Shown here in pieces: positions 17,693 to 36,535 of a DNA stretch of 64,000 nucleotides. Below the pieces are notes generated by a model. The model ran no database searches and was not told where the DNA came from. It saw nothing but the letters and a program-made list of their open reading frames with translations. The stretch comes from a virus. Position 1 is the stretch's first letter; every line of letters begins with the position of its first letter. The position numbers were made by a program, and so were the translations under genes. The stretch spans positions 1 through 64,000 of IMG/VR virus record IMGVR_UViG_3300008108_000067. One strand, 5' to 3'.

Positions 17693-17711
17693 ATGATTTA
17701 TCTCCTAAAAG

Positions 17712-18905: not shown

Positions 18906-19035
18906 ATAATGCCTCTCAGTTTGTTTCAATAGTTATTCGAACTATTATACGGTTATTAATACAAATAGCTACACACCCCAAGAGAGGTGTAATCTATATA
19001 ATATATAGTGTTATATTATCAAAAAACACTATTTT

Positions 19036-19626: not shown

Positions 19627-20310
19627 TTATTTCATATTCTTAGCTACATAATTTATTGCTACTTTTCGTACGTTTGAATCTTGCGAATATCCCAATGCAC
19701 TCTTGACCAAAATATCTCTGCCGGTTTGTGGATTCTTAATACGATGTTTTAATAAATCTTTTAGTCGTATTTGTTTCGTTGGTGTCTCACCAGTTTTCTT
19801 GGTATCCTTTTCTTGAGCTTGCTGTACTACCAATTTTGTTTGCGGATACTTTGTAAGTAGTGTTTTAACTGCCTTTACATTTTTGGGAGCATCATCTACG
19901 AATACAATTCTGTCAAATCCATCATTGATATGTTTTTCAATGTACCGTGCTTTTGCCATTGGATCAGAGTTACCCAAAGCAGCAATAGTAATACCAGAAG
20001 TAATTCCTTGTAATTTAAGAAATTTTGCAATAGGTTTGGTGTGACCACGAGCTGTGAGTACAACTATTTTATCAGCTTTCTTTTGGTCAACGACTTTCTT
20101 TAATAAGTCTGTATATTTTTTGATAGGACGAGGATTTTTTAATTGTTCAAACTCCGAAAAATCAAATGTATCACCATCTTGCTTTTCATATGCAGCGTAT
20201 TCCGCTGGTGATATTGTTCTTCGTTTACCGTCCTTATCAATGACAATAACCCTAGCGTCAGTATGCACTAGGGTATCATCAAAGTCCGTAATATATGCCG
20301 TTTTTCCCAC
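19627..20310 (-). CDS. HAD-superfamily phosphatase with C-terminal NPxTxRDI module
   Basis: HAD motifs DFDDTL, LTARG, K and FVDD. Confidence 0.75.
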   Translation of the reverse strand: MGKTAYITDFDDTLVHTDARVIVIDKDGKRRTISPAEYAAYEKQDGDTFDFSEFEQLKNPRPIKKYTDLLKKVVDQKKADKIVVLTARGHTKPIAKFLKLQGITSGITIAALGNSDPMAKARYIEKHINDGFDRIVFVDDAPKNVKAVKTLLTKYPQTKLVVQQAQEKDTKKTGETPTKQIRLKDLLKHRIKNPQTGRDILVKSALGYSQDSNVRKVAINYVAKNMK

Positions 20311-20314
20311 GATA

Positions 20315-20797
20315 TTATCGGGTAACTAATTTATATGCAGTAGCCACCATCTTTTCTAATGGAAGTGCCAACATTTTCTTACGATTTTCTGGTGCCAACT
20401 TATGTAAAACTTTTGTAAGTAATGCGGCAGTGTATACGTCAACTAACGTACCATCTATCTCTGCTGGGTGTTTATCCTTGACAATACTCAAAATCTTACT
20501 TTGTTTTTCACTATAATTTTCATCAGTAGTGACCAGATGTGGATCATTTGATACTGTTGGTGTAGTATCGTTGGATGCCACTGGAAAGTCAGATACAGGA
20601 ACTGCTCCTGCTACTTCATCCTTTTTCTTTGGTAATTTGGAAATTGGAGTTGATGCGTATTTTTTCACATCACTCTTAGACATTGTTTGTGCCAACTTTT
20701 GTGCAGTTGGACTAAAATCCGTTGCTTTTGCTCTTCCGGTTTGGATAGCATGAACGATACCAAATAATTTTTGTTGTGCTTTACTGACTGATGGCAT
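20315..20797 (-). CDS. Hypothetical head-region protein
   Basis: Start chosen at MPSVSKAQQKLFG, directly after the stop of the upstream gene. Confidence 0.6.
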   Translation of the reverse strand: MPSVSKAQQKLFGIVHAIQTGRAKATDFSPTAQKLAQTMSKSDVKKYASTPISKLPKKKDEVAGAVPVSDFPVASNDTTPTVSNDPHLVTTDENYSEKQSKILSIVKDKHPAEIDGTLVDVYTAALLTKVLHKLAPENRKKMLALPLEKMVATAYKLVTR

Positions 20798-20798
20798 C

Positions 20799-21179
20799 CT
20801 ATTTCTCCGAATACATTTCAGGATACAAATATCTAAATTTACGTAGTAATGTACCTGCCATTGCGTTGGCTTCATTTTCAATTTCAGAACCGTCTGTACC
20901 GTCTAGTTCTTTTTGTTCTTCACGTTGTTTGTGATGAACCAATTCATGCGCAAGTGTTCGTAATGTGTCAACCATGTGTCTACCATTTTTGACAATTACA
21001 ATTTCATCATTATCTGGTTGGTATGTACCAAATGTAAGATGTTGTTTGGAATAATCACTACCTACCATTTTAATTTTGGCAGGTAGTGATTTGAGTTGTA
21101 ATTCCTTTGCTGTAAACTTTACAAACTCATTTACTATATTTTTGTTGTAAACTTCGTTTAGTAAAGTTTTTAATTGCAT
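20799..21179 (-). CDS. Zincin-like metallopeptidase domain protein
   Basis: TLAHELVHHKQ (HExxH) plus downstream ENEA; leader MQLKTLLNE. Confidence 0.65.
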   Translation of the reverse strand: MQLKTLLNEVYNKNIVNEFVKFTAKELQLKSLPAKIKMVGSDYSKQHLTFGTYQPDNDEIVIVKNGRHMVDTLRTLAHELVHHKQREEQKELDGTDGSEIENEANAMAGTLLRKFRYLYPEMYSEK

Positions 21180-21185
21180 AAATTA

Positions 21186-21449
21186 TTACTTACCTTTTTT
21201 CTTGGTAGTAATTTTTGCTGCCTTCTTAACCACTTTCTTTCCTGTTTGTTCAACAGCCTTAACTGCTGCGACAACATCCTTGATGTCAACCTTTCCATCG
21301 TTATTGACATCTGCGATATCTTTTGCAGCAGTTTCAACTTTCTTAGCTGCAACAAATAGTGGTTTCTTTTCCATCTCTGTCATATTTTTGTGGTTAATCC
21401 ACCATGCGATAACCACAAGAACAACGACAACACTTAAAAATAGTAACAT
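21186..21449 (-). CDS. Membrane-anchored protein with EF-hand/dockerin-like loop
   Basis: N-terminal TM segment; DVNNDGKVDIKD. Confidence 0.6.
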   Translation of the reverse strand: MLLFLSVVVVLVVIAWWINHKNMTEMEKKPLFVAAKKVETAAKDIADVNNDGKVDIKDVVAAVKAVEQTGKKVVKKAAKITTKKKGK

Positions 21450-21468
21450 ATAAACTCCTTATGAAGAA

Positions 21469-22056
21469 TTATTTTAACTCACCTAGGAAATCGTAGATGA
21501 GAGTATCAATACGAGAATAAGGTGTAATGATTTGAGTTCCCTTATTTTCGTTGATGAACGCACCATGTGTAGATGGGTTACTTACGATGTCAAAACAAAT
21601 AAGAGAAAAATCTTCACCAACTTCTACGGTGTTTTCTCCAATAGGTTTGACTGAACCCAATCCACGCGATGATACACCCAAACGAATATTATTCTTAATT
21701 AATTCACGAACAATATTACCGGACGGAGTAGATAAAATTTCAATATTACCCTTCACATCCGCGCCTTCGAACCAAAGGTCTGTGACGTTACAACAAACAT
21801 TTTTTAGATTTACAACTGGGCTTTCTGGGTGGTCTAATTCACCCAGAGCTCGTCGTTGTGTAACGAAATTATTTTTATATACCATTGCTTCACGTGCCAA
21901 AATATCCTTTGGATAAATTCGACCATTTTGATTTTTATGATCTGCACGTTGTAGTACCACATCTTTCAAAACCAATGGTTTTGAAATGTCGGAAGCTTCG
22001 GTTAATAATTTACTGTCATAAGAAATGACGTTATATTCTACTAGTAGTGATTGCAT
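21469..22056 (-). CDS. Prohead protease (T4 gp21-like)
   Basis: NQNGRIYP, ALGELDHP, LGVSSRGLGS, FDIVSNPSTHGA; start chosen at MQSLLVE. Confidence 0.92.
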   Translation of the reverse strand: MQSLLVEYNVISYDSKLLTEASDISKPLVLKDVVLQRADHKNQNGRIYPKDILAREAMVYKNNFVTQRRALGELDHPESPVVNLKNVCCNVTDLWFEGADVKGNIEILSTPSGNIVRELIKNNIRLGVSSRGLGSVKPIGENTVEVGEDFSLICFDIVSNPSTHGAFINENKGTQIITPYSRIDTLIYDFLGELK

Positions 22057-22057
22057 C

Positions 22058-22552
22058 TTATTGTCCTCTAATTTCACGAATTCGAGTAGCGATACCAAGG
22101 AGTTTTGCTTCCAACTTTAATAATCCTTGTTGGGTACGTTTCCACAGTTGTTCACTTGTAATTCCCGATTCGTTTTTTAAACGAGCGTTCATTCTAATAA
22201 CTCGTTCAACTTCATTTAAATTTTTATTTAACTGAGATATTGCGTCAGCAATTTTCTTGTGTGGTGACTTTGTATCATCATTTCTATATTGATAATATTT
22301 GTTCTCTGCTAATTCGCGTGTCACCACTTCCATCTTATCTGCTGGACGGTTTGCATCTTTTTCACCCTTGGGTGTGAGTTTATATCCAGTTTGATTTGCT
22401 AGATGCTTTGCTCTATCTACATTTGTCTTTTTATTACCACGAAATGCCATAGGAGTTAGATAACCAGCAACCATGCCAGTTGTTGACATTTCATCCAATT
22501 CTTTCTTAATCAGTTCACGGATAGTTTGACGAAGCGCTTCTTTTTTGTCCAT
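22058..22552 (-). CDS. Hypothetical prohead-region protein
   Basis: Between portal and protease; N-terminal LRQTIRELIKKELDE. Confidence 0.55.
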   Translation of the reverse strand: MDKKEALRQTIRELIKKELDEMSTTGMVAGYLTPMAFRGNKKTNVDRAKHLANQTGYKLTPKGEKDANRPADKMEVVTRELAENKYYQYRNDDTKSPHKKIADAISQLNKNLNEVERVIRMNARLKNESGITSEQLWKRTQQGLLKLEAKLLGIATRIREIRGQ

Positions 22553-22554
22553 AA

Positions 22555-23439
22555 TTAACTCTTCAAATTGTCTAACGTTTTGGTAATTTCCAAAGCGATA
22601 AGTAACGCTGTCATATGATTTTCTTTAATGACTTGTGTAGTCTTAATTTTTTCCAGCTGACTAACTACTTCTGACAACTTAATTTTTACAATTTTGTCTT
22701 GTACGTAATTAAGTTTAGACTTGATTTCCGTTATTAATACGTTACATTCACTAACTGCACACTTACGAAGTGTTGCACTGTTAGACACATTATTAATGTA
22801 TTCACGAAGAAGATTTTTCTGACGGTCATTCAATCCTTGATATTTTTCGTTGAATTTTTCCATCAAAATTTTGTATGACAACAGACGTAAATCTTCTTCT
22901 TGTCCCTTGACGGTTTCGAATAACGCTGTGTCGTTTTTAATTTCTTTGTTGGTAATCGTACCACTTAAATGTTCTACTATGGTAAACTTTGCTTCTACCA
23001 TTCCTTCGATTTCATTGAAATCTTTAAGTTCGTTGATAACCCCATCAAAAACTTTATACACGGATGCGTAAACTTTGTATGACGGAACACGGGCACCCAA
23101 AAATTCTTTTAAGTCATAATTATTTTTTATTTCTTTAATTAACTTATATTTTTGAGTGTTAAGTGCTATCTCATTAAGTTTCTTACGTTGATTAATAATA
23201 AGATTTAATAATTCGAATGCCTTTGCTTCACTTAAATGCGAAGCATTGAAAAATGATCTATACAGAATTAATTCTTTACCTAGTTCTGTTTTAGAGTTGA
23301 AGTACTCCTTCATTAGCTTAACTGCAACATCGCTGTTACGGTTCTCTAATGCATCGGAGGTGATTTTACGGACTAATAATTCAAAGAGAATGCCCGTATT
23401 CCGTATTTTATTGTGCTTGACGTTAGATTTCATACACAT
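22555..23439 (-). CDS. Hypothetical prohead-region protein
   Basis: 294-aa helical protein directly downstream of portal. Confidence 0.55.
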   Translation of the reverse strand: MCMKSNVKHNKIRNTGILFELLVRKITSDALENRNSDVAVKLMKEYFNSKTELGKELILYRSFFNASHLSEAKAFELLNLIINQRKKLNEIALNTQKYKLIKEIKNNYDLKEFLGARVPSYKVYASVYKVFDGVINELKDFNEIEGMVEAKFTIVEHLSGTITNKEIKNDTALFETVKGQEEDLRLLSYKILMEKFNEKYQGLNDRQKNLLREYINNVSNSATLRKCAVSECNVLITEIKSKLNYVQDKIVKIKLSEVVSQLEKIKTTQVIKENHMTALLIALEITKTLDNLKS

Positions 23440-23496
23440 CCCGTTTTGGTGACATTATACCGTCATATATTAAATATAACGAATATTTATAAGACT

Positions 23497-25380
23497 TTAA
23501 TTTTCTAGGTCCAAAATGTTACTTTCGTCCAACAATGTTTGTGAAGATAAGGTAGATTCCATAATAATTTTTTTAGAATTTGCCTTATTCAAGAATGCTT
23601 GTACTTCCAAAGATAGTGGTGATTTACGTTTGTCGTTTCTCTGCTTACCCACTTTAAAAACTTTTTTATTTTCTTTGTGTCCTAGTGGATCACGACCTCG
23701 TGGGTGACTATCTTGACCAAATTTCATTCCTTCTCGTGGACGACCCATCTTAGCTTCTTCTAATTCTTCCTCTGGAATTTCCAGTTCACTTTCTTCACTT
23801 GGTTCTTCAAGAGAGGATAAAATGGTATTAACATCATCTATTTGTTGATCTTGTTCCGGAGCTGCCTGACTGTCTGGTTCTCCTGCGGGAAGTTCCTCTG
23901 GTGGTGCTTCCGTTGGCTGACCTGCCTGTTGCTCAATTCCAGTCAACTCCGACATACGTTTGACATCTTCTATAATCTTTTTACGTTCCGTAATAATTTC
24001 ATCTTCTGATAATTCTAGGATGTTGTGGTAAACCCAATCTTGGGATAACATCTTAGATTCCATAATTTGTGTAGCAACACCTACCTTTTCCTTCCACAAA
24101 TTTAATTTTTCTTGTTCGTAGATGACCGATGGATTGGTTAATGATAGTTCAAAATCAACTAAATCTTCATCTGTAAATCCTTGAACGTATAGATGGATAA
24201 TCGCAATCTTAGTTAATTCCGATACCATGATTCTCTGGATACGTTCGATTGTACGAGCAAATCGTACATCTTGCGCAGCCAACGTAGCTTTTCCACTAAT
24301 ATCTTCATCATATCCTATAAATGATTTGGGGACTTTAAATGCTGCCAAAAGTTTTCTACGGAGATATTCAATATCTTCAATTGCATTGAATTGTAACCCA
24401 GGAAGATTCTGAATGTCAGTACCACTATCTTTTCCACGGGTTGGTAAGAAGAAATCTTCTGTGATATTTTGCATATTATATCGAAGATTATAATCACCCG
24501 TTTGTGGATCAACTAATGGTGTCTTTTTCATACGGTCAATAATACGACTCATAAACGTATCAATTTCGGCAGGTGGTATATTACCAATATCTACTAAAAT
24601 CTTACGTTTATCTGGTGCTCTCATAATACGATGAATTAACATCGCATCTTCCATCAATTGAAGTTGCTTCCACACACGACGACCACCTTCAATCATACTT
24701 TTTCCATATGGAAGGAAGTTGGTGTCTGCTAATAATCGGAAGTGGGCAATTTCGTAATTATCAAATTCTGTTTTACCCAGTGCCAAGAAATCGTTTTCAA
24801 TCTTGAATTTTACAGAGAATGGATTGCCTGGGTCTTGTCCTTCAATACGGATGGTTTCATATACAGATAACGGCAATACGTTGACAACACCATATTCCGG
24901 GTCAATGTCGAGATATAAGAAGAAATCTCCATACTTACACATATTTCTGACCCACGGCCAGAGATTAAATTCTACGTTGAGAATGTCGTAAAATAAATTG
25001 TGAAGAATTTCTTGTATTTGAGTGTTTTTTGAATGGATACTGATTATTTGATTGAATTCGTCTTTAACAGTACTTTCGTCTGCATAGATATCCATAACCG
25101 ATGCGATAATAGGGTCATTATCCATCATGTCGTAGTCACGGAATAATTGTAACCGTGAACCTTGGAACGCCGCGGCTGCTTCATATCGTCCGTGGGCAGA
25201 ACCATATCCACCCGTCATTGACGAATAGACGCGATGGTATCTATCAATACCGCGTCTATTGATAAATGCTTGAATATTATCGGTGTCTGCGATTCTTAAC
25301 TTTTTTCCACCAACATTACGAACTATCGTGTTAGAAGAAAAAAGTTTCTTTAATCTGCCAAATATGCCGTTGTCAGCCAT
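23497..25380 (-). CDS. Portal protein (T4 gp20-like)
   Basis: WKQLQLMEDAMLIHRIMRAPDKR..VDIGNIP, EDFFLP.RG...GTDI..LPG, IEDIEYLRRKL.AAFKVP. Confidence 0.95.
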   Translation of the reverse strand: MADNGIFGRLKKLFSSNTIVRNVGGKKLRIADTDNIQAFINRRGIDRYHRVYSSMTGGYGSAHGRYEAAAAFQGSRLQLFRDYDMMDNDPIIASVMDIYADESTVKDEFNQIISIHSKNTQIQEILHNLFYDILNVEFNLWPWVRNMCKYGDFFLYLDIDPEYGVVNVLPLSVYETIRIEGQDPGNPFSVKFKIENDFLALGKTEFDNYEIAHFRLLADTNFLPYGKSMIEGGRRVWKQLQLMEDAMLIHRIMRAPDKRKILVDIGNIPPAEIDTFMSRIIDRMKKTPLVDPQTGDYNLRYNMQNITEDFFLPTRGKDSGTDIQNLPGLQFNAIEDIEYLRRKLLAAFKVPKSFIGYDEDISGKATLAAQDVRFARTIERIQRIMVSELTKIAIIHLYVQGFTDEDLVDFELSLTNPSVIYEQEKLNLWKEKVGVATQIMESKMLSQDWVYHNILELSEDEIITERKKIIEDVKRMSELTGIEQQAGQPTEAPPEELPAGEPDSQAAPEQDQQIDDVNTILSSLEEPSEESELEIPEEELEEAKMGRPREGMKFGQDSHPRGRDPLGHKENKKVFKVGKQRNDKRKSPLSLEVQAFLNKANSKKIIMESTLSSQTLLDESNILDLEN

Positions 25381-25393
25381 AACCCCTCAACTG

Positions 25394-25744
25394 TTAGTAG
25401 ATATATAATTCGTCTAATGCAATAACCGTTAGACGAACTGCTTCCGTATCTAATCCCGTAGTTGGTTTTTGCAATAGACTGTTTAATTTTTCGTGTAATG
25501 CACGTGCTGGTATTACTACATCTACGAGTTCTTTCATATGCCATGCGGACATTGTATTATAATTGTATGGCATTTCATTGACCGCAGTAATACCTTCCAT
25601 TAACTTTGCTACCAATTCGGTAATTTCATTCTGCTGCGACTCTTTTAAAGAGGGCATTAATTTTTCAAGTAGGGCAACTAATCGTGTAGAATTAATACGA
25701 TTTTCCTTACCTGCTTCTGTTACTAAGTGTGTTAACTTAATCAT
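25394..25744 (-). CDS. Small protein with MIKLxxLxxE leader
   Basis: MIKLTHLVTE N-terminus. Confidence 0.6.
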   Translation of the reverse strand: MIKLTHLVTEAGKENRINSTRLVALLEKLMPSLKESQQNEITELVAKLMEGITAVNEMPYNYNTMSAWHMKELVDVVIPARALHEKLNSLLQKPTTGLDTEAVRLTVIALDELYIY

Positions 25745-26102
25745 GCTTCTTCTCCTTATCTAATGCTCTTCGCATTTTCTTAACATCTTTTGGTTTCGGT
25801 GCGCCTCGAATGACACCACCAGGTCCAACTAATCCCATTGCGGGTGCCGCTGCCGCTGGTGCTGCTCCTGCCATTTGTTCCGAAACCTTTTTCTCTACGT
25901 TCTTTAATAATAGAGAATAATACTTTGGATTTTCTTTCAAATGTGCTGCTGCAATTTTTGCAGTCTTAACCACGTTTCCGTGGGTCACATCTTGATGTTC
26001 CAATTCAGTATTCATTCCCAAAAAGAATTCTGTTGGGTTAAACTTATAACCCATTTTATCTAACATCTTGTCGGATTGTTTCCGTGAAATTTTCTTTTTC
26101 AT
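25737..26102 (-). CDS. Small hypothetical protein (DUF5661-like)
   Basis: GMNTELEH.D......TAKIA.AHLKE.PKYY pattern. Confidence 0.55.
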   Translation of the reverse strand: MKKKISRKQSDKMLDKMGYKFNPTEFFLGMNTELEHQDVTHGNVVKTAKIAAAHLKENPKYYSLLLKNVEKKVSEQMAGAAPAAAAPAMGLVGPGGVIRGAPKPKDVKKMRRALDKEKKHD

Positions 26103-26105
26103 ATG

Positions 26106-26660
26106 TTACCAAGTACGACATGCCCAGTAACGAGCTTTCGTTCTTGGACCTGGGTTATCACAGTTGTGTCTAGCACGGAATGCTTTACGGCGAGAAGGAA
26201 TGTTCTTTTTAATTTTCATTGTCTTTTCACCACGGCGTTTTGCCGAAGTTCCACCGTGACCAAAGCTAACTTTCTTAATATTTCCACTCTTTGGGTCACG
26301 AACATATACCTTGAACTTCTTGACATCCCCTCTCATAATCTTACCAAGAGGAACTTTACGTCCTTGGTATTCTGCTTCACCAAGTTGATTTTCGTGTAGT
26401 CCTTCAAGAACTTCTATTAAACACTCATTACAGAACTCGCCTTCATGTAATTCATCAACTGCTTCCGAACCAAATTGGTTACGTTCGTGGTCTTGGTCTG
26501 GTTTGAAGTCACTATCCGAAGTAACATCACTTTCTGGACGATGATATAATTCTTTAACTGGAACACAGTTTGGAACCATTTTACCGTTTAGTTCCTTCAT
26601 TCCAACTTGCTTATATCCGTCCCAGCAGGATTCACATAGAATATCAGTCAATCTAATCAT
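26106..26660 (-). CDS. Modular basic Cys-containing protein with MIRLxDILxE leader
   Basis: Start chosen at MIRLTDILCE; modules CWDGYKQVGMK...VPNCVP and AEYQGRKV...FRARHNC...ARYWAC. Confidence 0.65.
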   Translation of the reverse strand: MIRLTDILCESCWDGYKQVGMKELNGKMVPNCVPVKELYHRPESDVTSDSDFKPDQDHERNQFGSEAVDELHEGEFCNECLIEVLEGLHENQLGEAEYQGRKVPLGKIMRGDVKKFKVYVRDPKSGNIKKVSFGHGGTSAKRRGEKTMKIKKNIPSRRKAFRARHNCDNPGPRTKARYWACRTW

Positions 26661-26683
26661 AGTTGCTCTCAATGTCAAGAGTT

Positions 26684-27010
26684 TTATTTCTTTTTAAAAG
26701 TAGAAACCATAGTTGGTTTTCCACCTGGATTTCCTGCTTTTCTCTTTCTTGTTACAGCTGAACGTTTTTCACCTTTACTCATTGCTGCTGCGGAACGAGC
26801 AGGTCTACATTTTGGATATTTAGCCGACCCACCTTTACGCTCTTTTTTACCAGCGGAAGCACCACACGGTGGATGCTTTCCAGTTTTCGGGTCTTTTCTG
26901 GAAATATCCACCCATTTTTGCTTCAACCACTTACCCAATTCACCTTTTGGTTTATACTTCTCATCCAAAATATCTTCGGTAAGTTCAACTAAAATATCTT
27001 GTAATTTCAT
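26684..27010 (-). CDS. Basic Cys-containing protein with MKLxDILxE leader
   Basis: MKLQDILVE; LGKWLKQKWVDI...PCG...YPKCRP. Confidence 0.65.
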   Translation of the reverse strand: MKLQDILVELTEDILDEKYKPKGELGKWLKQKWVDISRKDPKTGKHPPCGASAGKKERKGGSAKYPKCRPARSAAAMSKGEKRSAVTRKRKAGNPGGKPTMVSTFKKK

Positions 27011-27372
27011 TACTTTAAGAACTTCAACTTATAAATTGTGGAATTCACCAATCCAGAAATTTCATCTACGATATTATTGAGGTCACCATCTTGTGGCAAT
27101 CCCTTGCGAACACTATCAATATAGGTTGATAATCCAGTAAAATACTTTACTATTTCATCACCTTCGAAGTATTGCTTTTGTGGAGTATATCCACGAATAA
27201 TACCATAACGACCTTGGCAGGTTTCTGCGTACTTATCTACCAAATCTACGATATCATCATAGTATTCATTCAATGCCTTGTGAGCGGCATATGATGAAGT
27301 TTGTAAGTGGAAGATGTGTGCTTGGTCACGACTATTGAATAGTGTGGACAAAAACTTTGCTACGGTTCCCAT
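27010..27372 (-). CDS. Ferritin/Dps-like four-helix protein
   Basis: QAHIFHLQT.SYAAHKALNEYYD.I.DLVD..AE...DEI..L...T.YKL. Confidence 0.65.
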   Translation of the reverse strand: MGTVAKFLSTLFNSRDQAHIFHLQTSSYAAHKALNEYYDDIVDLVDKYAETCQGRYGIIRGYTPQKQYFEGDEIVKYFTGLSTYIDSVRKGLPQDGDLNNIVDEISGLVNSTIYKLKFLK

Positions 27373-28019
27373 TACATTGCTCCAGCGTCAGAGGCTGGTT
27401 GCTCCTTTTGTCCGTATTCGTGATAACTTGTATTTGCTTGGTCCAAGTTATTTTCTGCCACTGCGATATGGTCTTGAATCCATGCTGGAATGTCCTTTTC
27501 GTCCATTCCAAGCTTACCCTTTAATTCGGTTGCGTGACGGATGATGGAGTCAAGAGTTTTAGTTGCCATTGAAACTTCGTGATCTTCACCTTCAGCACCT
27601 TCCTTCTTCATTGCCTTGCCGATTGCGTCACGACGAGCTTGTAAATACTTGTCGGAAGAGTCTTTATCTCCATCGTTATCAATGTCACCATCTTCTTTAC
27701 CAACTGGATCCATTGCTTCCAGTTGTGCGATTAATTCATCAAGTTTTGCAGATTGTTCTTCGGAGAGTTCAGTTTCTTCCTTGAGCTTCTTCAAGGTCAT
27801 AGCTAAACGAGCACGTTGGCCTAGCTTACCACCCTTTTCGGCAGCAGCCTTTAACTTACCGGCTGGGATTGGTTCATCTGCCGATACACCAAGTTGTTTC
27901 TTTAATGCACCTGGTTTCTTGATTGCTTGTTGAATCCACTTTTCTTCTTCGTTCATCGAACCAACTGGTTTGTTACCAATTGCTTTAATACCAGGTACTA
28001 ATCCCATTAATTTAATCAT
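27372..28019 (-). CDS. Modular hypothetical protein with EF-hand-like loop
   Basis: MIKL leader; modules KWIQQAIKKPGAL..., DPVGKEDGDIDNDGDKDSSD and EDHEVSMA...PAWIQ. Confidence 0.65.
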   Translation of the reverse strand: MIKLMGLVPGIKAIGNKPVGSMNEEEKWIQQAIKKPGALKKQLGVSADEPIPAGKLKAAAEKGGKLGQRARLAMTLKKLKEETELSEEQSAKLDELIAQLEAMDPVGKEDGDIDNDGDKDSSDKYLQARRDAIGKAMKKEGAEGEDHEVSMATKTLDSIIRHATELKGKLGMDEKDIPAWIQDHIAVAENNLDQANTSYHEYGQKEQPASDAGAM

Positions 28020-28035
28020 CGTGCTTCTCCAAATG

Positions 28036-28518
28036 TTATAGGGAGGTTTGTCCCTTCTTTTTTGCTATTAAATACCGCTTATATAAATCTCTTTTTGCTT
28101 TCATCAACTTATCTGTTAAATCTACCTTTCCATCATTGTTGATGTCTGCGTCCTCTTGACCCATTGGATCACGACGAACGTGTGGATAATGTACTTCTTT
28201 CTTACCACTTCTCCATCCACCACCCATACTCTTGTACTTTTTTGCTGCCCATAAGTTAGCGTATGCTGATGGATAGACTTTAAACTTACGTTTTGCAGCT
28301 GCCTTGGCTGCAGCCCACTTTGATGGATTGGTTGGAATTGACTTTTCTAATAATGCGGAAAGTTCTTCCATTTTTTGTAGTCGTGGGTCTGCAAAGTCAC
28401 TTTCAGTTTCTTTATATCCACCCCACGGATAACCTTCATCTTGTTTGCAATCACAACCTTCGGTTTGCAAACAACCACAATCCTCAAAGATATATGAATA
28501 GTAATCCTTGTAATTCAT
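28036..28518 (-). CDS. Modular basic protein with EF-hand-like loop
   Basis: Start chosen at MNYKDYY; KFKVYPSAYAN.W..K.YK..GGGW; DPMGQEDADINNDGKVDLTD. Confidence 0.6.
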   Translation of the reverse strand: MNYKDYYSYIFEDCGCLQTEGCDCKQDEGYPWGGYKETESDFADPRLQKMEELSALLEKSIPTNPSKWAAAKAAAKRKFKVYPSAYANLWAAKKYKSMGGGWRSGKKEVHYPHVRRDPMGQEDADINNDGKVDLTDKLMKAKRDLYKRYLIAKKKGQTSL

Positions 28519-28520
28519 TG

Positions 28521-28817
28521 TTATTTTGCCTTCTTTTTCTTTTTGGAATCTATTGCTCTGTTGGTAGCTGTTGCATATAGGTATGACTTCCAATCGTCAC
28601 CAAATTTATCTTTGAAATAACGAACCGAACGTTTGTTTTTTAGTAATTTCTTACCAATCTTATCACGACCTTGAACTTGTCCCTTGGTCATCTTTCGTGG
28701 TGGTTCACGACTTGCAACCGTACGTTCGTCGAGTTCCTCTTCTTCTGGCTTTTGCATTTCTTGAAGAACTGCTGCCAATTCTTCACGGATGATTTCTAAA
28801 ATTTCATCTTTGGTCAT
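28521..28817 (-). CDS. Hypothetical protein
   Basis: ILEIIREELAAVLQE N-terminus; basic C-terminal FKDKFGDDWKSYLYATAT. Confidence 0.6.
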   Translation of the reverse strand: MTKDEILEIIREELAAVLQEMQKPEEEELDERTVASREPPRKMTKGQVQGRDKIGKKLLKNKRSVRYFKDKFGDDWKSYLYATATNRAIDSKKKKKAK

Positions 28818-28820
28818 ATC

Positions 28821-28979
28821 TTATACCGGTTTAGATTTGGTTACACCACCACGTTTGCGTTTTTTACGTCCTGCGCAATGTGCTTTTTGACTGAAACCTT
28901 TGGGGTTACTACAATTTATGGACTTTTTATACTTCTTTGTCCATTTTTCAGTTAGTAAAATATCAACTAGTTTAATCAT
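28821..28979 (-). CDS. 52-aa basic protein with MIKLxDILLxE leader (below ORF-track cutoff)
   Basis: MIKLVDILLTEKWTKKYKKSINCSNPKGFSQKAHCAGRKKRKRGGVTKSKPV; promoter box 27 nt upstream. Confidence 0.7.
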   Translation of the reverse strand: MIKLVDILLTEKWTKKYKKSINCSNPKGFSQKAHCAGRKKRKRGGVTKSKPV

Positions 28980-29005
28980 AGTTAAATCCAATAAAAACAC
29001 TACAT

Positions 29006-29015
29006 TATAAATAGT
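29006..29015 (-). promoter_or_regulatory. Putative late promoter box ACTATTTATA
   Basis: Exact copy heading the small-protein cluster. Confidence 0.65.
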
Positions 29016-29018
29016 GTA

Positions 29019-30605
29019 TTATCCTAGTAACCACGATATATTTTCCTTCTTACCACCAATTTCCATTTCATATGGATTGTGTGTAACATGCTTATTTGTG
29101 TACACCATACCTTCTACACTATACCTTGTCTTGTCCAATGTTAACTTCGTCAGTTCTATACCCTCCTGGCGCAACCTGAGGGCGGTGTCCCGTACCCATA
29201 GACCTATACACAATGCCATCGTCAAGTCATCGTTATAACCAGATAATGCTTCTGGTCTACCGTTCTTCCAAATAAAAGTATCTAATTCGGCGCACATACG
29301 AGATGACCGAATAGTAAAACTATTTTCTAACATATATTCTTTTAATCGTGCGATAACCAACGGACGAGTTCTTTGCGAGGTGGTGAACCCAGGTACCATA
29401 TTTCGTTCTTCACGATAATACTTTCCGGTCATTTGATGCTCGACATCCACATATTGTAAATCTTTGGACATATAAAAGAGATTTTTATATCCTCGGTCTA
29501 TAACTTGTTGTATTGCGTTCCATCCTATACTACTATTTTCTGGGATGAGTAGTGCATCATTGTATTCTGTTGCGATGGACACCAACATATTACCAAACTG
29601 TTTGGTTTCTACCTTTCCTTTATATTCTGCCACTTGGGTTGACGTTTCTACATCAATCACATGAAATGCGGAATAGTCCTCACCATCTCCACGAGATACG
29701 TCAGCCGAAACAATATAGGATTTCCCGGATTGTGGGTACTCCCATATCCATAAGTTTCCATCAAACCCACCCTTACTAATAGGTTCTTTCACAAACGTGG
29801 ATTTGTAGAATTCAATAATTTCTGGTGGGACAACTGTATTACCTGAGAATATAAACGAGGCATCATGTTCTTGTGCTGCCTGCATTTCACCAAGAATTTC
29901 TGTTTGACGGTCACGCCATGCCTGGTCACGTTCTGGATGTACTTGCCAATCCAACAAGATTGGATTAAATTCGTTTGCTTGACTTTCTGCTTGTTGCCAC
30001 ATCTTGTGGAAGAAGTTACCCACACCGTTTGGAGTGGAAATAAGAATAGCTTTTCCACCCGTGGATAACGTACTTGATGCTGCCGTCCAGATAATGTCGG
30101 CGTTATCAATAAATGCACACTCGTCAAGAATCAATAGAGACAATGCTTCGGAACGTCCAGCGTCTTTACTACTTGCCACAGCTTTAATCTGTGACCCGTT
30201 GGTAAATTGTAATGACAGTTTATTATCTGTTAATATTTCACCACGTAACCACACAGGAAGGTTTTGATGCATAAAACGAACTTTGGTTACTAAGTTTTTT
30301 GCAGTTTCTTGCTTGGTTGCGATAACAAGAATATTCTTGTCTTTGTGAAACAACATCAACCACAACGCATACCCCGCAACTAATGTAGAGAAACCTAACT
30401 GACGCCCTTTAAGTACAATGTTATATCGGTTTTCTTCAAACTCTCCCATCGCCTTTGCTTGGTATGGATATAAGTCAAACAACACCCGACCACGAATCGG
30501 GTGTTGAATATACGAATATTTAGATAAAAAGTACTCAGGCTGGAGTGCGCACTTTTTATATTCTTCTTTAATACGTTCACGTAACTGTTGTGCTGTTGTA
30601 TTCAT
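29019..30605 (-). CDS. Terminase large subunit (T4 gp17-like)
   Basis: KGRQLGFST (Walker A), LLILDECAF (Walker B), ISTPNG, nuclease SADVSRGDGEDYSAF and NDDLTMA. Confidence 0.95.
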   Translation of the reverse strand: MNTTAQQLRERIKEEYKKCALQPEYFLSKYSYIQHPIRGRVLFDLYPYQAKAMGEFEENRYNIVLKGRQLGFSTLVAGYALWLMLFHKDKNILVIATKQETAKNLVTKVRFMHQNLPVWLRGEILTDNKLSLQFTNGSQIKAVASSKDAGRSEALSLLILDECAFIDNADIIWTAASSTLSTGGKAILISTPNGVGNFFHKMWQQAESQANEFNPILLDWQVHPERDQAWRDRQTEILGEMQAAQEHDASFIFSGNTVVPPEIIEFYKSTFVKEPISKGGFDGNLWIWEYPQSGKSYIVSADVSRGDGEDYSAFHVIDVETSTQVAEYKGKVETKQFGNMLVSIATEYNDALLIPENSSIGWNAIQQVIDRGYKNLFYMSKDLQYVDVEHQMTGKYYREERNMVPGFTTSQRTRPLVIARLKEYMLENSFTIRSSRMCAELDTFIWKNGRPEALSGYNDDLTMALCIGLWVRDTALRLRQEGIELTKLTLDKTRYSVEGMVYTNKHVTHNPYEMEIGGKKENISWLLG

Positions 30606-30613
30606 AATACCTC

Positions 30614-31249
30614 TTATTTGACTACAAGGACTCCCGATACTACACCGACTCCGATACCAACCAAAAATGACATTTTACGACTTGGTAACTTGATACCAAA
30701 CATACGGTTGGGATTTTTTGGTGCTTGTGGGATATTAATAACTACTTTTTGTAAACTATCCCGTGATGTTGTAAGTAATAAAATAGCGTTATCTTTGTTT
30801 TTTAATGCTCGTTCCAACTCAGATACTTGCGATGCTTGGGTTTCAATTGTAATTTCTTGTTGTGCAATAATAGAATCTTTCACTGGTAGTATTGCTCGTG
30901 CCAATTCCAGTGTGTCTGTTATTGTTTTCGACATTGTTGCCGCTACAGTTTTTAAATTAGTAGTGGATGTTCGAAGTTCAACAACTTGTGACCCCAGAAC
31001 TTTTGCACGTGACTCCGCCGCACGAGCTTCATTTTCTTCTATTGTAATTTGTGTTTTTAAACTATCTGCAAAATGTATAGCAGAATCAGCTTGTGCTTGA
31101 AACTTTTTATATTCCGCTATATACTTGTCCATTTCATCTTGCTTAGCAGATGTTGTAACACAATACGATAATGATGCAATTACCGATATTATTACGATAG
31201 ACTTAGTTGTTTTCAGTATATGCGGGATCACCAAATTTACCCGTTTCAT
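30614..31249 (-). CDS. Membrane-anchored coiled-coil protein (spanin-like candidate)
   Basis: Hydrophobic N-terminus, long coiled coil, hydrophobic C-terminus. Confidence 0.4.
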   Translation of the reverse strand: MKRVNLVIPHILKTTKSIVIISVIASLSYCVTTSAKQDEMDKYIAEYKKFQAQADSAIHFADSLKTQITIEENEARAAESRAKVLGSQVVELRTSTTNLKTVAATMSKTITDTLELARAILPVKDSIIAQQEITIETQASQVSELERALKNKDNAILLLTTSRDSLQKVVINIPQAPKNPNRMFGIKLPSRKMSFLVGIGVGVVSGVLVVK

Positions 31250-31820
31250 CGAATTCTCCGGCTTCGACCTTTATTAAATGGTCTTTGAGTTTTTGTATTT
31301 CTTCTTCTAAATCTCTTCGAACAGTAGTTAAATCAACATTCCATTTTTCAATCATCAAAATCTTTTCTTGGTCTGCATGAATAAATTCTGGTTGTGATAG
31401 ATTTTCGTGGTAATTTTGAAGTTCTTGTATTCTATCTTTTACCCAGGCAATATGATTTTGTTTACCTTTTTCTACAATTGTTTCTACCCATTTACCCTGA
31501 CGTTTTAATTCCATCTCTTCTCTTTCTATACAATTATAACAAACACCACGTTTTTTATAAGCTTTTAGATGAACACCATTCAAGGGAGTGTCGCACTTTG
31601 GACACCACCACGGCGTTTTAAAACCATCCAGTTTAGTGACCGATTGGATTAATCCATTTTTCCTAGTCCACTTTGTACCATTTACATCCACCCACACTTC
31701 ACCTTCTTTTCGTTCAACTTGTTTCGGTGTCCAACCAAACGTAAGTTTTTGTTCCTGCTTGTTCATTACTTCACCAATTTTTCTTCTTACGTTCTTCATT
31801 GCATCTTCATTTGTTGCCAT
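31203..31820 (-). CDS. Hypothetical Zn-finger protein
   Basis: CPKC...CYNC. Confidence 0.5.
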   Translation of the reverse strand: MATNEDAMKNVRRKIGEVMNKQEQKLTFGWTPKQVERKEGEVWVDVNGTKWTRKNGLIQSVTKLDGFKTPWWCPKCDTPLNGVHLKAYKKRGVCYNCIEREEMELKRQGKWVETIVEKGKQNHIAWVKDRIQELQNYHENLSQPEFIHADQEKILMIEKWNVDLTTVRRDLEEEIQKLKDHLIKVEAGEFDETGKFGDPAYTENN

Positions 31821-31829
31821 AGTAACCTC

Positions 31830-34682
31830 TCAGTTTGATATTGCTTTTTTAACTATACTCATTGCTGCGGTATATACTGGTTCTTTTTTATCGTATTTTA
31901 ACGCGGTTCCTACAAATATATCTCTATCCGTTTTTGGATTTCTAACTTTCTGTTTTAATACCTTTGCCAAAGTTTGACGTTTTGCCGGTGGTACGTTTGA
32001 TACCATATCTTTGGGTGATTTTGTCGGTGTAACTTTTGGCTTTTGTTTCATTTTTGGAGCAGTTACATCTTTACCATGTGTCTGCGTCAACTTCAAAGCT
32101 TCCTCTGAATCTGTTGTTACTTTAACAATTTTATCAAAGATTTTTTTGTCAAATTTACCGTATACTTTGGTAAATATTTCTTGCTTTGCTCTATCTGTTA
32201 TGTTTGGATTTCCCATAACAGACCGAAGTTGTGTACCACTAATATTTTTACCATCAATTTGTAGTTGCATCTCAGGAGCAACTATAAAGTATCCTTGATC
32301 TGCGTATCCTTTGAGGTCTTTTTCTGGTACTTCTTCGTATGGTTTGAAATATTTTCCTCCCAACCGGTCAGCATCTTTTTGACTGACTGCTGTAACGTAC
32401 ACCGCGTCTGGTGGTAATTTACTTAATACTTCCGATGGTGCGTATGGATTTTTAACTTGTATTACGTTATCGTCTGGTATTCCAAACATACGAGTCATAA
32501 TTTCTTTTTTGTCTTTGAACCCGAACGGTGATTTGGTTGCATCGGTTTTATCGCTCGATGCGATATATACATTATCTTTACCAAATTTCTTTACCATTGC
32601 TTGATAGATACTATAATGTCCAGCATGAAATGGTTGAAATCTTCCGGTAAATATAGCAGCAATTTTACGTTCCCCAACAGGTGTGGGTTCTGTCTTTTGC
32701 GCTTCCGGTTCTTTCTTTGGTTCTTCTACTGGTGCTTCTTCGGCTTTACCCTTCGCAAACTTCAAAGTTCCTAAAATTTGATTTACTGGTGCGAATGTAC
32801 CTGTAAATTTATATGGTTTGCCGTTATATATAAACACCAATCCTTCTGATGGTACGACATTATCAATACCAATATCGTCCAATCGTTCAATTTGTGTTTG
32901 TAGTTTTGCAAGTTTATTTATATCGTCTGTATCTTGTAGAGACTTAATAGTATCTAATAATTCTTTCTTCAACGATGCAGTTAATTCTGGATTGTTTGCC
33001 GATAACGTATTGGTAACACGACGAAGTGTATCAGCTCCTACTTTCAGAAAAATACTTTCTAATGGGCGTGTAACAGCTCGTTCCGAATTCGTTAATTCAG
33101 TTGCTTCAAATTGCCTAAACCATTTTTTGGTTTCTGGATCTTCAAAGTCCTTAACTCCAATAGCTTTCTTGTCTCCCGTTGCCCATCGTTTAACCAATCC
33201 ATTAAATTGTTCTTCCGATAATTCCAATCCTTGTGTTTCTACTTGTCTGGTAAGTTCTCTTTCCCACCATGCTATTTTATAATCTTCCAAGGTATTTTTA
33301 TCGTCAAGATCAAATTCTTGTTGTAGTCGTGTCAATGCTGCACCATACTCTTGCATTTTTTCTTTATTACGAGCAGTATCTGCGTCGCTAAATGCAATAC
33401 TACGTGGTCCAGATATACCAAACGTTTTTTGTTGCTGTGCGTTTACTTTTGTAATTTGATCAGAAAGTTTTTTACTATCCTCTATATCACGACCAATTTC
33501 GTTTCCTTCTTCGTCGTATTTAACAGTTCCATGAAATACCAAAACACTCTTGTCGTATGGTATAACGTTCTTTGTGTCTGGAAATATTATCTCAACGTTC
33601 ATAAATTTTGAACCGTCAGCAAACATCTGATCACGTTCTTCTTGTGGTAAAGCTTGAATAGCTTTAGTGATATCATCCGCAGCACCACCAAAAGCTTTTT
33701 CAACGTTACCTCGTCCGGCAAACATCTGTCGTAAATCTGCCGCAGGTAGTGCGTTTTTTGCTTTATTTTTTACTTGGCCTTTATTACGAGCAAAAACAAC
33801 TTGACCATCTCTAACAGAAAACATGATATTTTGTCCATCAAGTTTTTCTGTGACAGGTGCTTCCGCATCTAACCCACCTACCAATCCACGTTTAATCATT
33901 TCTTTTACATCAGAAAACTTTAATGTATCATCTTCATACGGATGTGCTAAATGTCCTGCCGCACCACCCTCAGATATTAATTGCCATGGACCATTAGGAA
34001 CATTACCTTCATATAGTTCAGAAAGATAAACATATTCTAAGCCTTCATTCTTTTTATCTCGTCCGTGGTCTTTACGAGCAAGTTTCCAGTTACCATTTTT
34101 TGCACCATTGGGATGATGTACATCATGGTTTTTCATTTTTGATTTGCCGTACTTCTTAACTGCCTTTTTGCGGTCACGGTTACGGGCAACACGGTCATCC
34201 TGAGTCTTTTTAAGGTAGTTACGAACTTTTTCGGGATGACGGCGATTGTATCTCCGCATTCGTTCCGTGCTTGATAGTGCTTCATTATTGATGAATTCAT
34301 CATCATGCTCCGGTCCAATAGAGTAAGGGTATGCAAATGCATTATCTTTATTTTGTGGTTTAATTTCATCCACTCCACCTTCACCTGCACCTGTCTCTCC
34401 ACCAGTATCACCGCTGTCTGTTGGTGGTGTTGTTGGTTCTTCTGCTGGTTGTTCACCAGTTTTTATTACACGAGGATATAATGGATAGAAAAATCCATAA
34501 TTTTTTATTTTTTCTTTTGCTTTTTTACGCTTCTTCTTCATCTCATCCATTGAATCTGTGTGATTAATGGTTAGTTCACCAACAAGTTCTGGTGCCAACT
34601 TCGCAACCAAAAAATTATGTTGGTCAACATATTCATTTTCATTCAATATATTTTCAAATAAATTATTTATTGGATTACTCAT
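31830..34682 (-). CDS. Multidomain protein: degenerate HNH-like segment + ligase-like (KxDG) domain + HxGH nucleotidyltransferase + C-terminal NPxTxRDI module
   Basis: HDVHHPNG; TEKLDGQN...EGLVF...YKFTG; IFTGRFQPFHAGH...ISGTQLR. Confidence 0.7.
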   Translation of the reverse strand: MSNPINNLFENILNENEYVDQHNFLVAKLAPELVGELTINHTDSMDEMKKKRKKAKEKIKNYGFFYPLYPRVIKTGEQPAEEPTTPPTDSGDTGGETGAGEGGVDEIKPQNKDNAFAYPYSIGPEHDDEFINNEALSSTERMRRYNRRHPEKVRNYLKKTQDDRVARNRDRKKAVKKYGKSKMKNHDVHHPNGAKNGNWKLARKDHGRDKKNEGLEYVYLSELYEGNVPNGPWQLISEGGAAGHLAHPYEDDTLKFSDVKEMIKRGLVGGLDAEAPVTEKLDGQNIMFSVRDGQVVFARNKGQVKNKAKNALPAADLRQMFAGRGNVEKAFGGAADDITKAIQALPQEERDQMFADGSKFMNVEIIFPDTKNVIPYDKSVLVFHGTVKYDEEGNEIGRDIEDSKKLSDQITKVNAQQQKTFGISGPRSIAFSDADTARNKEKMQEYGAALTRLQQEFDLDDKNTLEDYKIAWWERELTRQVETQGLELSEEQFNGLVKRWATGDKKAIGVKDFEDPETKKWFRQFEATELTNSERAVTRPLESIFLKVGADTLRRVTNTLSANNPELTASLKKELLDTIKSLQDTDDINKLAKLQTQIERLDDIGIDNVVPSEGLVFIYNGKPYKFTGTFAPVNQILGTLKFAKGKAEEAPVEEPKKEPEAQKTEPTPVGERKIAAIFTGRFQPFHAGHYSIYQAMVKKFGKDNVYIASSDKTDATKSPFGFKDKKEIMTRMFGIPDDNVIQVKNPYAPSEVLSKLPPDAVYVTAVSQKDADRLGGKYFKPYEEVPEKDLKGYADQGYFIVAPEMQLQIDGKNISGTQLRSVMGNPNITDRAKQEIFTKVYGKFDKKIFDKIVKVTTDSEEALKLTQTHGKDVTAPKMKQKPKVTPTKSPKDMVSNVPPAKRQTLAKVLKQKVRNPKTDRDIFVGTALKYDKKEPVYTAAMSIVKKAISN

Positions 34683-36525: not shown

Positions 36526-36535
36526 TATAAATAGT
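36526..36535 (-). promoter_or_regulatory. Putative late promoter box ACTATTTATA
   Basis: Exact copy, 27 nt upstream of ATG 36499 and immediately after the SbcCD stop. Confidence 0.65.

Follow-up and report, generated by a model that had tools for sequence, protein, structure and literature searches.

The window analysed here is a stretch of 64,000 nucleotides (nt), positions 1 to 64,000 of the viral record IMGVR_UViG_3300008108_000067, which comes from an uncultured T4-like phage, is 90.9 kb long and has a completeness of ~47% according to CheckV. Two genes on its minus strand, P0001 and P0002, encode an HAD-superfamily phosphatase and a multi-domain fusion of 950 amino acids (aa). Both proteins carry close to their C-terminal ends the same small basic segment, referred to below as the module. 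The parts of the two proteins are given first, with structural models from AlphaFold2 (AF2) rated by their predicted local distance difference test score (pLDDT).

19627-20310, minus strand: P0001, 227 aa, HAD phosphatase with C-terminal module
19807..20310, minus strand: HAD-superfamily phosphatase domain (P0001 1-168), with a GTG start and without an N-terminal leader
19783..19806, minus strand: K/T/P-rich linker of P0001 (169-176), read from the translation
19639..19782, minus strand: module copy 1 (P0001 177-224), core KNPQTGRDILVKSALGY, profile hit of 105 bits, AF2 model with pLDDT 90.5
31830-34682, minus strand: P0002, 950 aa, multi-domain fusion with C-terminal module
34638..34682, minus strand: possible T4-type leader (P0002 1-15), MSNPINNLFENILNE, with a hydrophobic-hydrophobic-x-Glu site at 12-15
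34038..34280, minus strand: basic region, HNH-like HDVHHPNG...NW...DH (P0002 ~135-215), read from the sequence by eye
32748..33980, minus strand: RNA-ligase-like covalent nucleotidyltransferase domain with a long helical insert (P0002 ~235-645), from motifs and an AF2 model
32103..32669, minus strand: NMNAT-like HIGH-motif nucleotidyltransferase domain (P0002 ~672-860), CTP_transf_like E 4e-9, phrog_395 E 7e-12
31989..32102, minus strand: K/P/T-rich linker of P0002 (861-898), read from the translation and kept by the closest orthologues
31845..31988, minus strand: module copy 2 (P0002 899-946), core RNPKTDRDIFVGTALKY, from BLASTP, tblastn and a profile hit

Two enzymes with a common segment

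The HAD phosphatase and the 950-aa fusion, which are otherwise unrelated, share one homologous segment of ~48 residues. BLASTP aligns P0001 177-224 with P0002 899-946 without gaps, at 19/48 identical and 29/48 positive positions (pairwise E 3e-7). An earlier note on this DNA had described a C-terminal segment of 43 residues common to these two enzymes, and the aligned stretch includes those residues and bears the claim out. The placement needs a small correction: the segments lie near the C-terminal ends and not exactly at them, with three residues (NMK) trailing before the stop in one protein and four (AISN) in the other. K/P/T-rich linkers precede both tails (QEKDTKKTGETPTKQ and TAPKMKQKPKVTPTKSPK). 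A six-frame tblastn search of the 90.9-kb record for a third copy found none, the next match having an E of 0.55.

The phosphatase domain of P0001 has the motif I sequence DFDDT (DxDxT) at 9-13, which is kept in every orthologue inspected, followed by VVLTARG at 83-89 and FVDDAPKN at 137-144. It matches PHROG 'polynucleotide kinase' families (phrog_415 at E 1.3e-6 over residues 3-168, phrog_3970 at E 1.6e-3), while in Pfam it reaches only DUF2608, at 22.9 bits versus a cut-off of 22.6, and a PDB sequence search returned no relative. P0001 is accordingly predicted to be an HAD phosphatase of the polynucleotide kinase (PNK) type, with a putative 3'-phosphatase activity. A partner 5'-kinase was looked for: P0001 holds no kinase domain, and no AAA_33 match occurs in the 90.9-kb record. 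On other contigs (L032:2974-4461 and L033-L042), which form one group of relatives, a Mom-family domain (PF25680, E 1.3e-25) is joined to the HAD phosphatase and precedes the module. These HAD-Mom fusions, together with Toprim-Mom-module fusions (P0142), hint that the HAD enzyme may serve a nucleic-acid modification pathway instead of end healing.

In P0002, residues 7-15 read NLFENILNE; orthologue N-termini are alike, and such starts are enriched among module carriers. The HNH-like region is 63-75% identical in L081, L092 and L118 and has no family hit. The ligase-like domain carries LISE-GGAAGH from 235, EKLDGQN at 279-285, SEGLVF at 612-617 and KPYKFTG at 622-628, and the K, D and G of motif I (KxDG), the E-G of motif IV and the K of motif V are invariant across 16 orthologues. 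Its AF2 model is of modest confidence (pLDDT 69). In a second look with VIA, the top 31 rows are all ligases, the best being the Naegleria RNA ligase 6vt3 (Z 7.3, root-mean-square deviation 4.6, 177 aligned residues), and Foldseek reaches E 0.03 only. A PDB profile search gave no hit for this domain; Pfam found none there in P0002, and RNA_ligase only at E 0.039 in the orthologue L107.

The NMNAT-like domain has the motifs GRFQPFHAGH (680-689) and ISGTQLR (814-820). Its best PDB hits are NMNATs (2qjt at E 1.1e-4, 1f9a at 2.8e-4, and 1ej2), followed by the PPAT 3do8 at E 0.003, and the fold family also includes PPAT and cytidylyltransferases. The domain is nearest to NadM and the archaeal NMNATs, and specificity for nicotinamide mononucleotide (NMN) is a prediction from these matches. 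A NAMPT or NAPRTase partner was looked for in the 90.9-kb record and is absent from it. The domain assignments made in the earlier note hold for all three domains: DxDxT and the PHROG 'polynucleotide kinase' matches for the HAD domain, invariant KxDG, EG and K motifs and a possible ligase-like fold for the ligase-like domain, and GRFQPFHAGH with NadM and archaeal NMNATs as nearest relatives for the third.

The module family and its partner enzymes

The profile of the module is built from an alignment (A1) of 35 diverse copies, which were chosen from 66 distinct copies in orthologues of both proteins on IMG/VR contigs. Applied to 1.84 billion cluster representatives, it retrieves 629 protein clusters (50% identity) at E <= 1e-3 and 188 at E <= 1e-10. 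The carriers are 46 to 1,693 aa long and contain one to four copies per protein, at the N-terminus, internally or at the C-terminus. A degenerate DNA pattern for the core matches at least 120 stretches in IMG/VR, and all 80 of the 80 loci listed encode a true copy. Chance similarity and a low-complexity artefact are rejected on the basis of these profile and pattern results. Building a profile and listing the carriers, as the earlier note proposed, has thus recovered hundreds of phage proteins.

Over 143 non-redundant copies, the consensus reads [KR]-[IV]-[KR]-N-P-x-T-G-[NR]-x-I-x-V-K-[TS]-A-L-x-Y-D-K-x-H-P-[AV]-[YH]-K-x-A, with N, P, T, I, A, Y and A near-invariant. The mean net charge of these copies is +5.5, and Lys or Arg occupies the hairpin-flanking positions and those on the last helix in 62-74% of copies. 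Structure prediction, another check suggested earlier, gives a confident fold: AF2 on A1 (pLDDT 90.5) places a helix at 5-15, a beta-hairpin at 18-20/27-29 with the N-P-x-T-G residues in the turn, a short helix and a final helix at 41-54. The module is an autonomous, previously unannotated, basic mini-domain of ~45-50 residues.

Existing resources offer no name for it. Pfam at E <= 10 has no family for either copy, the best PHROG match is non-significant (phrog_9471, E 0.19), Pfam gives zero hits over the module region in 45 full-length carriers, and the ESM Atlas search was without a hit. All BFVD matches are labelled "uncharacterized protein [uncultured Caudovirales phage]", and ten module-bearing clusters that were looked up come from metagenome sources only (JGI/IMG, ENA, Logan), with no informative name. 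A tblastn search with two module copies against 50,697 GenBank phage records returned nothing at E <= 1, and the module is thus not visible in any cultured phage of that collection. In 185,579 prokaryote species genomes, a stricter DNA pattern finds two contigs only (L243, CAZDEU010000005.1, and L244, CAIMGI010000016.1), both phage-like and binned in metagenome-assembled genomes of uncultured Bacteroidales/Bacteroidetes; L243 carries phage head genes and is therefore probably a mis-binned phage contig. The module is virus-only, and a host within Bacteroidota is hinted at.

Partner enzymes were read from the best 150 of the 629 or more profile hits and from viral loci. Approximately 70 of those best 150 hits have ligase-like, NMNAT-like or HAD domains, and the largest remaining partner group is SAM lyase/DUF3293. 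Mom-family domains are also represented, including HAD-Mom-module and Toprim-Mom-module fusions, as are Toprim, ParB_N-Toprim, topoisomerase IB, ADP-ribosyltransferase, GNAT and protein kinase domains. Partners acting on RNA ends elsewhere comprise a PNK-like AAA_33/zeta-type kinase and a complete CCA-adding enzyme, and in L179 the kinase-module gene adjoins the CCA-module gene. The module is consequently promiscuous yet themed, being joined to nucleic-acid and nucleotide enzymes and to classic host-takeover enzymes. The earlier note had proposed that the module unites an RNA-repair and nucleotide kit. A functional theme on a portable module is indeed present, and the PNK-like kinase and CCA-adding enzyme with the same module fit RNA repair, but the module is not specific to such a kit, because Mom, Toprim, topoisomerase IB, ParB, ADP-ribosyltransferase, SAM lyase, GNAT and kinase domains carry it as well.

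The architectures are equally varied. Many ligase-NMNAT proteins have the permuted order NMNAT-module-ligase-module (e.g. L101, L103 and L107), and others gain appended cassettes, each closed by a module, so that relatives reach 1,400-1,700 aa and up to four modules. Complete relatives of 180-245 kb contain 2-6 copies in 2-4 proteins, typically a SAM lyase, an HAD protein or a ligase-NMNAT polyprotein. In the polyproteins L118:2773-7107 and L097:756-5291, a PGDYG domain (PF14083) is inserted ahead of the NMNAT domain; polyproteins of this type also have an extra cassette of ~190 residues (...LTEN..KLKVYVYTRDYTEEEL) closed by a second module. This shuffling of the module as a cassette, onto the termini of many different enzyme domains and between them, has taken place in a clade of aquatic T4-like phages whose hosts are probably Bacteroidota.

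Leaders and the head-gene neighbourhood

A hydrophobic-hydrophobic-x-Glu site within the first ~18 residues is found in 38/105 complete carrier representatives versus 5.6 expected, and the longer form L-x-x-L-L-x-E in 20/105 versus 1.8, with the expected counts taken from the remainder of the same sequences. The enrichment appears in 16 of 31 independent similarity groups formed with the module masked. Examples are MIKLKGLLTE on the CCA-adding enzyme, MVNLLKE and ...DILKE on HAD-module proteins of jumbo phages, and MIKLINLLQE in L243, which directly abuts the module in a gene located between protease and capsid genes. The site recurs at internal boundaries: it lies at most 10 residues after 20/70 internal modules (2.8 expected), ahead of at least three different downstream domains, and hydrophobic-hydrophobic-x-E-GGAAGH stands at the front of the ligase domain in 45/56 contexts, as LISE at 235-238 in P0002.

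In phage T4, the first 10 residues of the internal protein IPIII, ending in Glu, suffice for prohead loading and are removed by gp21, and Alt is processed at both ends (PMC9026906, PMC3012670). The T4 internal proteins, which like Alt are loaded by this 10-residue capsid-targeting sequence, are diverse and basic and are embedded in the packaged DNA (PMC3012670, PMC9026906). By analogy, the leader-enzyme-module layout, which recurs inside polyproteins, looks like protease-processed head cargo, with packaging and cleavage as predicted steps; it agrees with the theme of polyvalent proteins as well (PMC5512222). The Glu-ending leaders, the boundary motif and the location of genes among head-core genes suggest that a large share of carriers are probably loaded into the prohead.

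The head and packaging genes of the window, all identified by PHROG matches, are as follows.

16127..17704, minus strand: major head protein (phrog_138, E 1.3e-68)
21469..22098, minus strand: prohead (gp21-like) protease (phrog_207, E 5e-49)
23497..25380, minus strand: T4 gp20-like portal (phrog_213, E 5e-61)
29019..30605, minus strand: large terminase (phrog_2, E 3e-50)

Read along the minus strand, a 606-aa gene heads the operon containing P0002 and is followed by P0002, two small genes, the large terminase, small genes with MIKLxxILxE starts and the portal. Beyond the portal come two genes, the gp21-like protease, small genes (one with a DUF3008-like segment) and P0001, and then two small genes, a 405-aa gene (17712-18929) for a scaffold-like protein, the major head protein, an adaptor-like gene and the tail sheath. 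The P0002 start overlaps the stop of the preceding gene by 4 nt, and the terminase lies 1.2 kb downstream of P0002 in identical orientation; P0001 begins 4 nt past the stop of its upstream gene and is flanked by the protease and major head protein genes. This gene order places both P0001 and P0002 within head and packaging operons. By tblastn, the closest named relatives of the portal are in Microcystis phage Mel-JY01 (47%) and Flavobacterium phage immuto (44.5%), and a megablast search of the 16-kb region against phages gave zero matches.

Other module-bearing proteins occupy an equivalent head-gene neighbourhood in L126, L132, L145, L164, L196 and L243, and the terminase of the complete 180-245 kb relatives likewise has the ligase-NMNAT polyprotein directly upstream. 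The ligase-like/NMNAT-like fusion also stays a few kb upstream of the large terminase in very distant phages (L121, which is Mel-JY01, PP395634.1 11243-13162; G003/G005), with the module present or absent. This linkage of an enzyme gene to a packaging gene is conserved.

Several smaller features accompany these genes. Small proteins encoded at 25394-28979 (minus strand, between the terminase and portal genes) and at 20799-21179 start with MIKLTHLVTE, MIRLTDILCE, MKLQDILVE, MIKLVDILLTE or MQLKTLLNE, all of which follow the pattern of the T4 capsid-targeting sequence. Two leader-bearing proteins, at 26106-26660 and 26684-27010 (minus strand), have C-terminal parts that are Cys-rich or very basic, with a hairpin motif of the KVYVRDPKSGNIKKVSFG type and no family identified. 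The product of the gene directly upstream of the HAD phosphatase (20315-20875, minus strand) is 186 aa long, and its SKAQQKLFGIVHAIQTG segment matches several function-unknown PHROGs. A DUF3008 domain (PF11450) also stands at the head of the Mom-module protein P0070, and the DUF3008-like segment could be a further small portable module belonging to this set of proteins.

Upstream of genes, ACTATTTATA occurs on the sense strand at 36526-36533 and 29006-29013, ~26 nt before the starts of the 606-aa gene and of the first MIKL-leader gene, respectively. In other phages, TATTTATA is found upstream of 22/72 module open reading frames (ORFs) versus 43/509 other ORFs, at 3-54 nt from the start codon; this enrichment is not relied on because spurious ORFs are counted in the background and the distance to the start codon is not constant. 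The T4 late promoter TATAAATA was rejected as a candidate signal, with 14 matches versus 7.75 expected, not a clear enrichment, mostly on the wrong strand for module genes. We infer late expression and a counter-defence role, both proposed in the earlier note, as possible attributes of the module enzymes.

Possible roles of the module and comparison with known systems

The reading that we favour, tentatively and at somewhat less than an even chance, is that the module is a nucleic-acid-binding tether on enzymes, many of which are probably delivered by the capsid. It would be a small, basic, sequence-unspecific tether that binds DNA or RNA and keeps the attached enzyme there. Many carriers would be loaded into the prohead via their Glu-ending leader, trimmed by the gp21-like protease and delivered along with the genome, with the module holding them on the packaged DNA and subsequently on nucleic acids of the newly infected cell, where the predicted activities would act. 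Several observations argue for a tether: the module is strongly basic, its hairpin tip carries the motif [KR]NPxTG[KR]xIxV, also seen in the arm that HU inserts into DNA, a resemblance at the level of the motif only (E 0.11), and most partner domains act on nucleic acids.

A wider claim built on this reading is that the module marks a large unrecognised enzyme repertoire, preloaded in the capsids of aquatic T4-like phages as protease-processed leader-enzyme-module cassettes and injected on the DNA. The repertoire would cover an RNA-repair set (ligase, 3'-phosphatase, 5'-kinase and CCA-adding enzyme), an NAD-making enzyme, SAM lyase, Mom-like modifiers, topoisomerase IB and ADP-ribosyltransferases. 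As a whole, this claim seems doubtful at present.

A number of observations weigh against a tether on capsid-delivered enzymes. The basic charge is compatible with other roles too, and neither Foldseek against the PDB nor a VIA search with the module finds a fold match (VIA best Z 3.9), such that no known nucleic-acid-binding structure or family matches. The stretch resembling HU is a PDB profile match of 14 residues (RNPQTGKEIKIAA, E 0.11) that is also common to a loop of the unrelated isocitrate dehydrogenase. For those partners whose substrates are small molecules or proteins (SAM lyase, NMNAT, GNAT, protein kinase and ADP-ribosyltransferase), the benefit of a nucleic-acid tether is not obvious. 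As for delivery, P0001 has neither a leader nor a hydrophobic-hydrophobic-x-Glu site, the motif ahead of the ligase domain may be part of the fold instead of a cleavage site, and the complete 180-245 kb relatives place HAD-module and SAM-lyase-module genes far from head genes.

The remaining objections concern P0002. Its ligase-NMNAT fusion stands next to the terminase in phages without the module (Microcystis phage Mel-JY01), and the ligase-NMNAT core without the module is also present in a 484-kb uncultured phage. The closest P0002 orthologues (up to 76% identity, e.g. L043) keep the linker and then have a different basic module of ~45 residues, A4 (L043:5671-5820 and orthologues: YKPGETWET-GGNFGGKNKKNQVRYFGT---A-KFAKT), whereas the HAD protein on the same contigs retains the N-P-x-T-G module. 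The module is thus not essential to the ligase-NMNAT enzyme, and a common tag on both enzymes is not conserved. The P0002 C-terminal end accepts interchangeable small basic modules, and the substitution by an unrelated basic module suggests a selected function at that protein end. A1 and A4 were considered as distant relatives and rejected (hhalign probability 0.5%). A4 has no match in Pfam or the PDB, and a likeness to AP2-type DNA-binding domains noticed by eye found no support in those searches.

The module itself might instead be an address tag that binds the scaffolding core, capsid interior or portal and loads unrelated enzymes into the prohead, analogous to the C-terminal coat-binding domain of a scaffolding protein. 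In favour of this possibility, module genes sit in head-core clusters of several related phages, P0001 has the module and no leader yet lies between protease and capsid genes, and several partners (ADP-ribosyltransferase, SAM lyase and primase-like Toprim) are similar to effectors that phages are known to inject (PMC5512222). The earlier note likewise proposed a shared localisation or assembly tag, with the capsid interior among its candidate sites, and the location of both genes in head and packaging operons agrees with it. However, many carriers already bear a T4-type leader, which is sufficient for loading in T4 (PMC9026906), making the N-terminal leader the better candidate for a capsid address, should these proteins enter the capsid. 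The module is also not tied to one position and can be present in as many as four copies, six-frame tblastn detects it in no structural protein of the 90.9-kb record, several module genes are far from head genes in complete jumbo relatives, and the closest P0002 orthologues replace it by an unrelated module. An address tag is consequently regarded as unlikely.

Slightly less probable still is binding of the module to a protein hub common to all carriers, such as the sliding clamp, SSB, RNA polymerase, the ribosome or a factory protein of the phage, which would concentrate the enzymes at one site during infection. Promiscuous fusion to enzymes of differing substrates, some of them small-molecule, would suit such a hub, and the conserved aromatic/His-Pro surface (profile Y33, H37-P38 and Y40) could be a protein-binding site, but no candidate partner was identified, and nucleic acid is a better match for the hairpin motif and for a positive charge that is both strong and conserved. 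Known hub-binding elements are, moreover, usually short peptides and not folded domains. A tRNA- or RNA-specific handle that docks healing and sealing enzymes on broken tRNAs, which we consider improbable, would account for the module on RNA-ligase-like, PNK-like phosphatase, PNK-like kinase and CCA-adding enzymes, the last two adjacent in L179. Against such a handle, the module occurs equally on DNA enzymes (topoisomerase IB, Toprim and ParB_N), Mom, SAM lyase and ADP-ribosyltransferase; in addition, HAD is fused to Mom throughout one group of relatives, and the kinase is absent from the 90.9-kb record. Very improbable is a stabilising or oligomerising cap with no targeting role, shuffled along with linkers. 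The module is small, helical and often terminal, and no functional match to it was found, as such a cap would have it; yet the surface Lys/Arg and the N-P-x-T-G tip are strongly conserved across 143 diverged copies, the module persists on more than 12 unrelated partner domains, and its place in the protein can be taken over by another basic module that is unrelated to it.

Independently of its role, the module is a sequence handle, with which one profile retrieves hundreds of phage enzymes that evolution has treated as one class and uncovers previously unannotated fusions such as ligase-NMNAT and HAD-Mom. Tethering of enzymes to nucleic acid or to the packaged genome, if that is what the module does, would explain how T4-like phages that infect environmental bacteria deliver or localise RNA-repair, NAD and anti-restriction activities, and the module would then be a small portable tag for engineering phage cargo. 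If the preloaded repertoire exists, counter-defence and repair enzymes would arrive ready-made with the genome and not be synthesised after infection. The regularity of the leader-enzyme-module layout predicts processing by the head protease.

Among known systems, the beta-arm of HU/IHF shares with the module R/K-N-P-x-T-G-K/R-x-I-x-[IV] at a predicted beta-hairpin tip. Beyond this tip the module has nothing of the HU fold, and the fold searches gave no match, which makes this a motif resemblance and not membership. The T4 Pnkp/Rnl1 pair is paralleled by the HAD phosphatase matching PHROG 'polynucleotide kinase' and the KxDG ligase-like domain, to which relatives add a module-bearing PNK-like P-loop kinase and a CCA-adding enzyme. 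Unlike in T4, the phosphatase is without a kinase domain, and none is present in the 90.9-kb record; the ligase-like domain has a 200-residue helical insert and an NMNAT-like fusion, relatives have an HAD-Mom fusion, and the genes are in head operons and not among early genes. The NMNAT-like domain has the GRFQPFHAGH and ISGTQLR motifs of NadM and archaeal NMNATs, its best solved relatives. It differs from these enzymes and from phage NAD salvage in its fusion to a ligase-like domain and module, with no NAMPT or NAPRTase in the 90.9-kb record.

The polyvalent proteins (Iyer, Burroughs, Anand, de Souza and Aravind, 2017; PMC5512222) similarly combine several unrelated enzyme domains per polypeptide beside portal or terminase genes, and their repertoire overlaps in ADP-ribosyltransferase, ParB, Toprim and zeta-toxin-like kinase. 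P0002 fits this pattern in joining HNH-like, ligase-like and NMNAT-like parts and the module 1.2 kb upstream of the terminase. The present proteins differ in that no MuF, portal or peptidase fusion is seen and in their regular leader-enzyme-module cassettes. The text of that paper shows no sign of the module or of the ligase-NMNAT fusion (adaptor, Mom, NMNAT and DUF3293 are unmentioned).

The T4 internal proteins IPI-III and Alt differ from the module carriers in that a shared folded 45-residue domain, C-terminal, internal or repeated, is not described for them, while the cargo here consists of large multi-enzyme proteins, P0001 is leaderless and packaging is a prediction. The two systems are alike in the gp20-, gp21- and gp23-type head genes, in the short Glu-ending leaders on many unrelated basic carriers, including an ADP-ribosyltransferase, and in a cargo set that varies between relatives. 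Portable adaptors on phage effectors and capsid-targeted cargo are already-known kinds; for the domain family, the leader-enzyme-module cassette layout and the conserved fusion of ligase and NMNAT, no description seems to exist in the resources searched.

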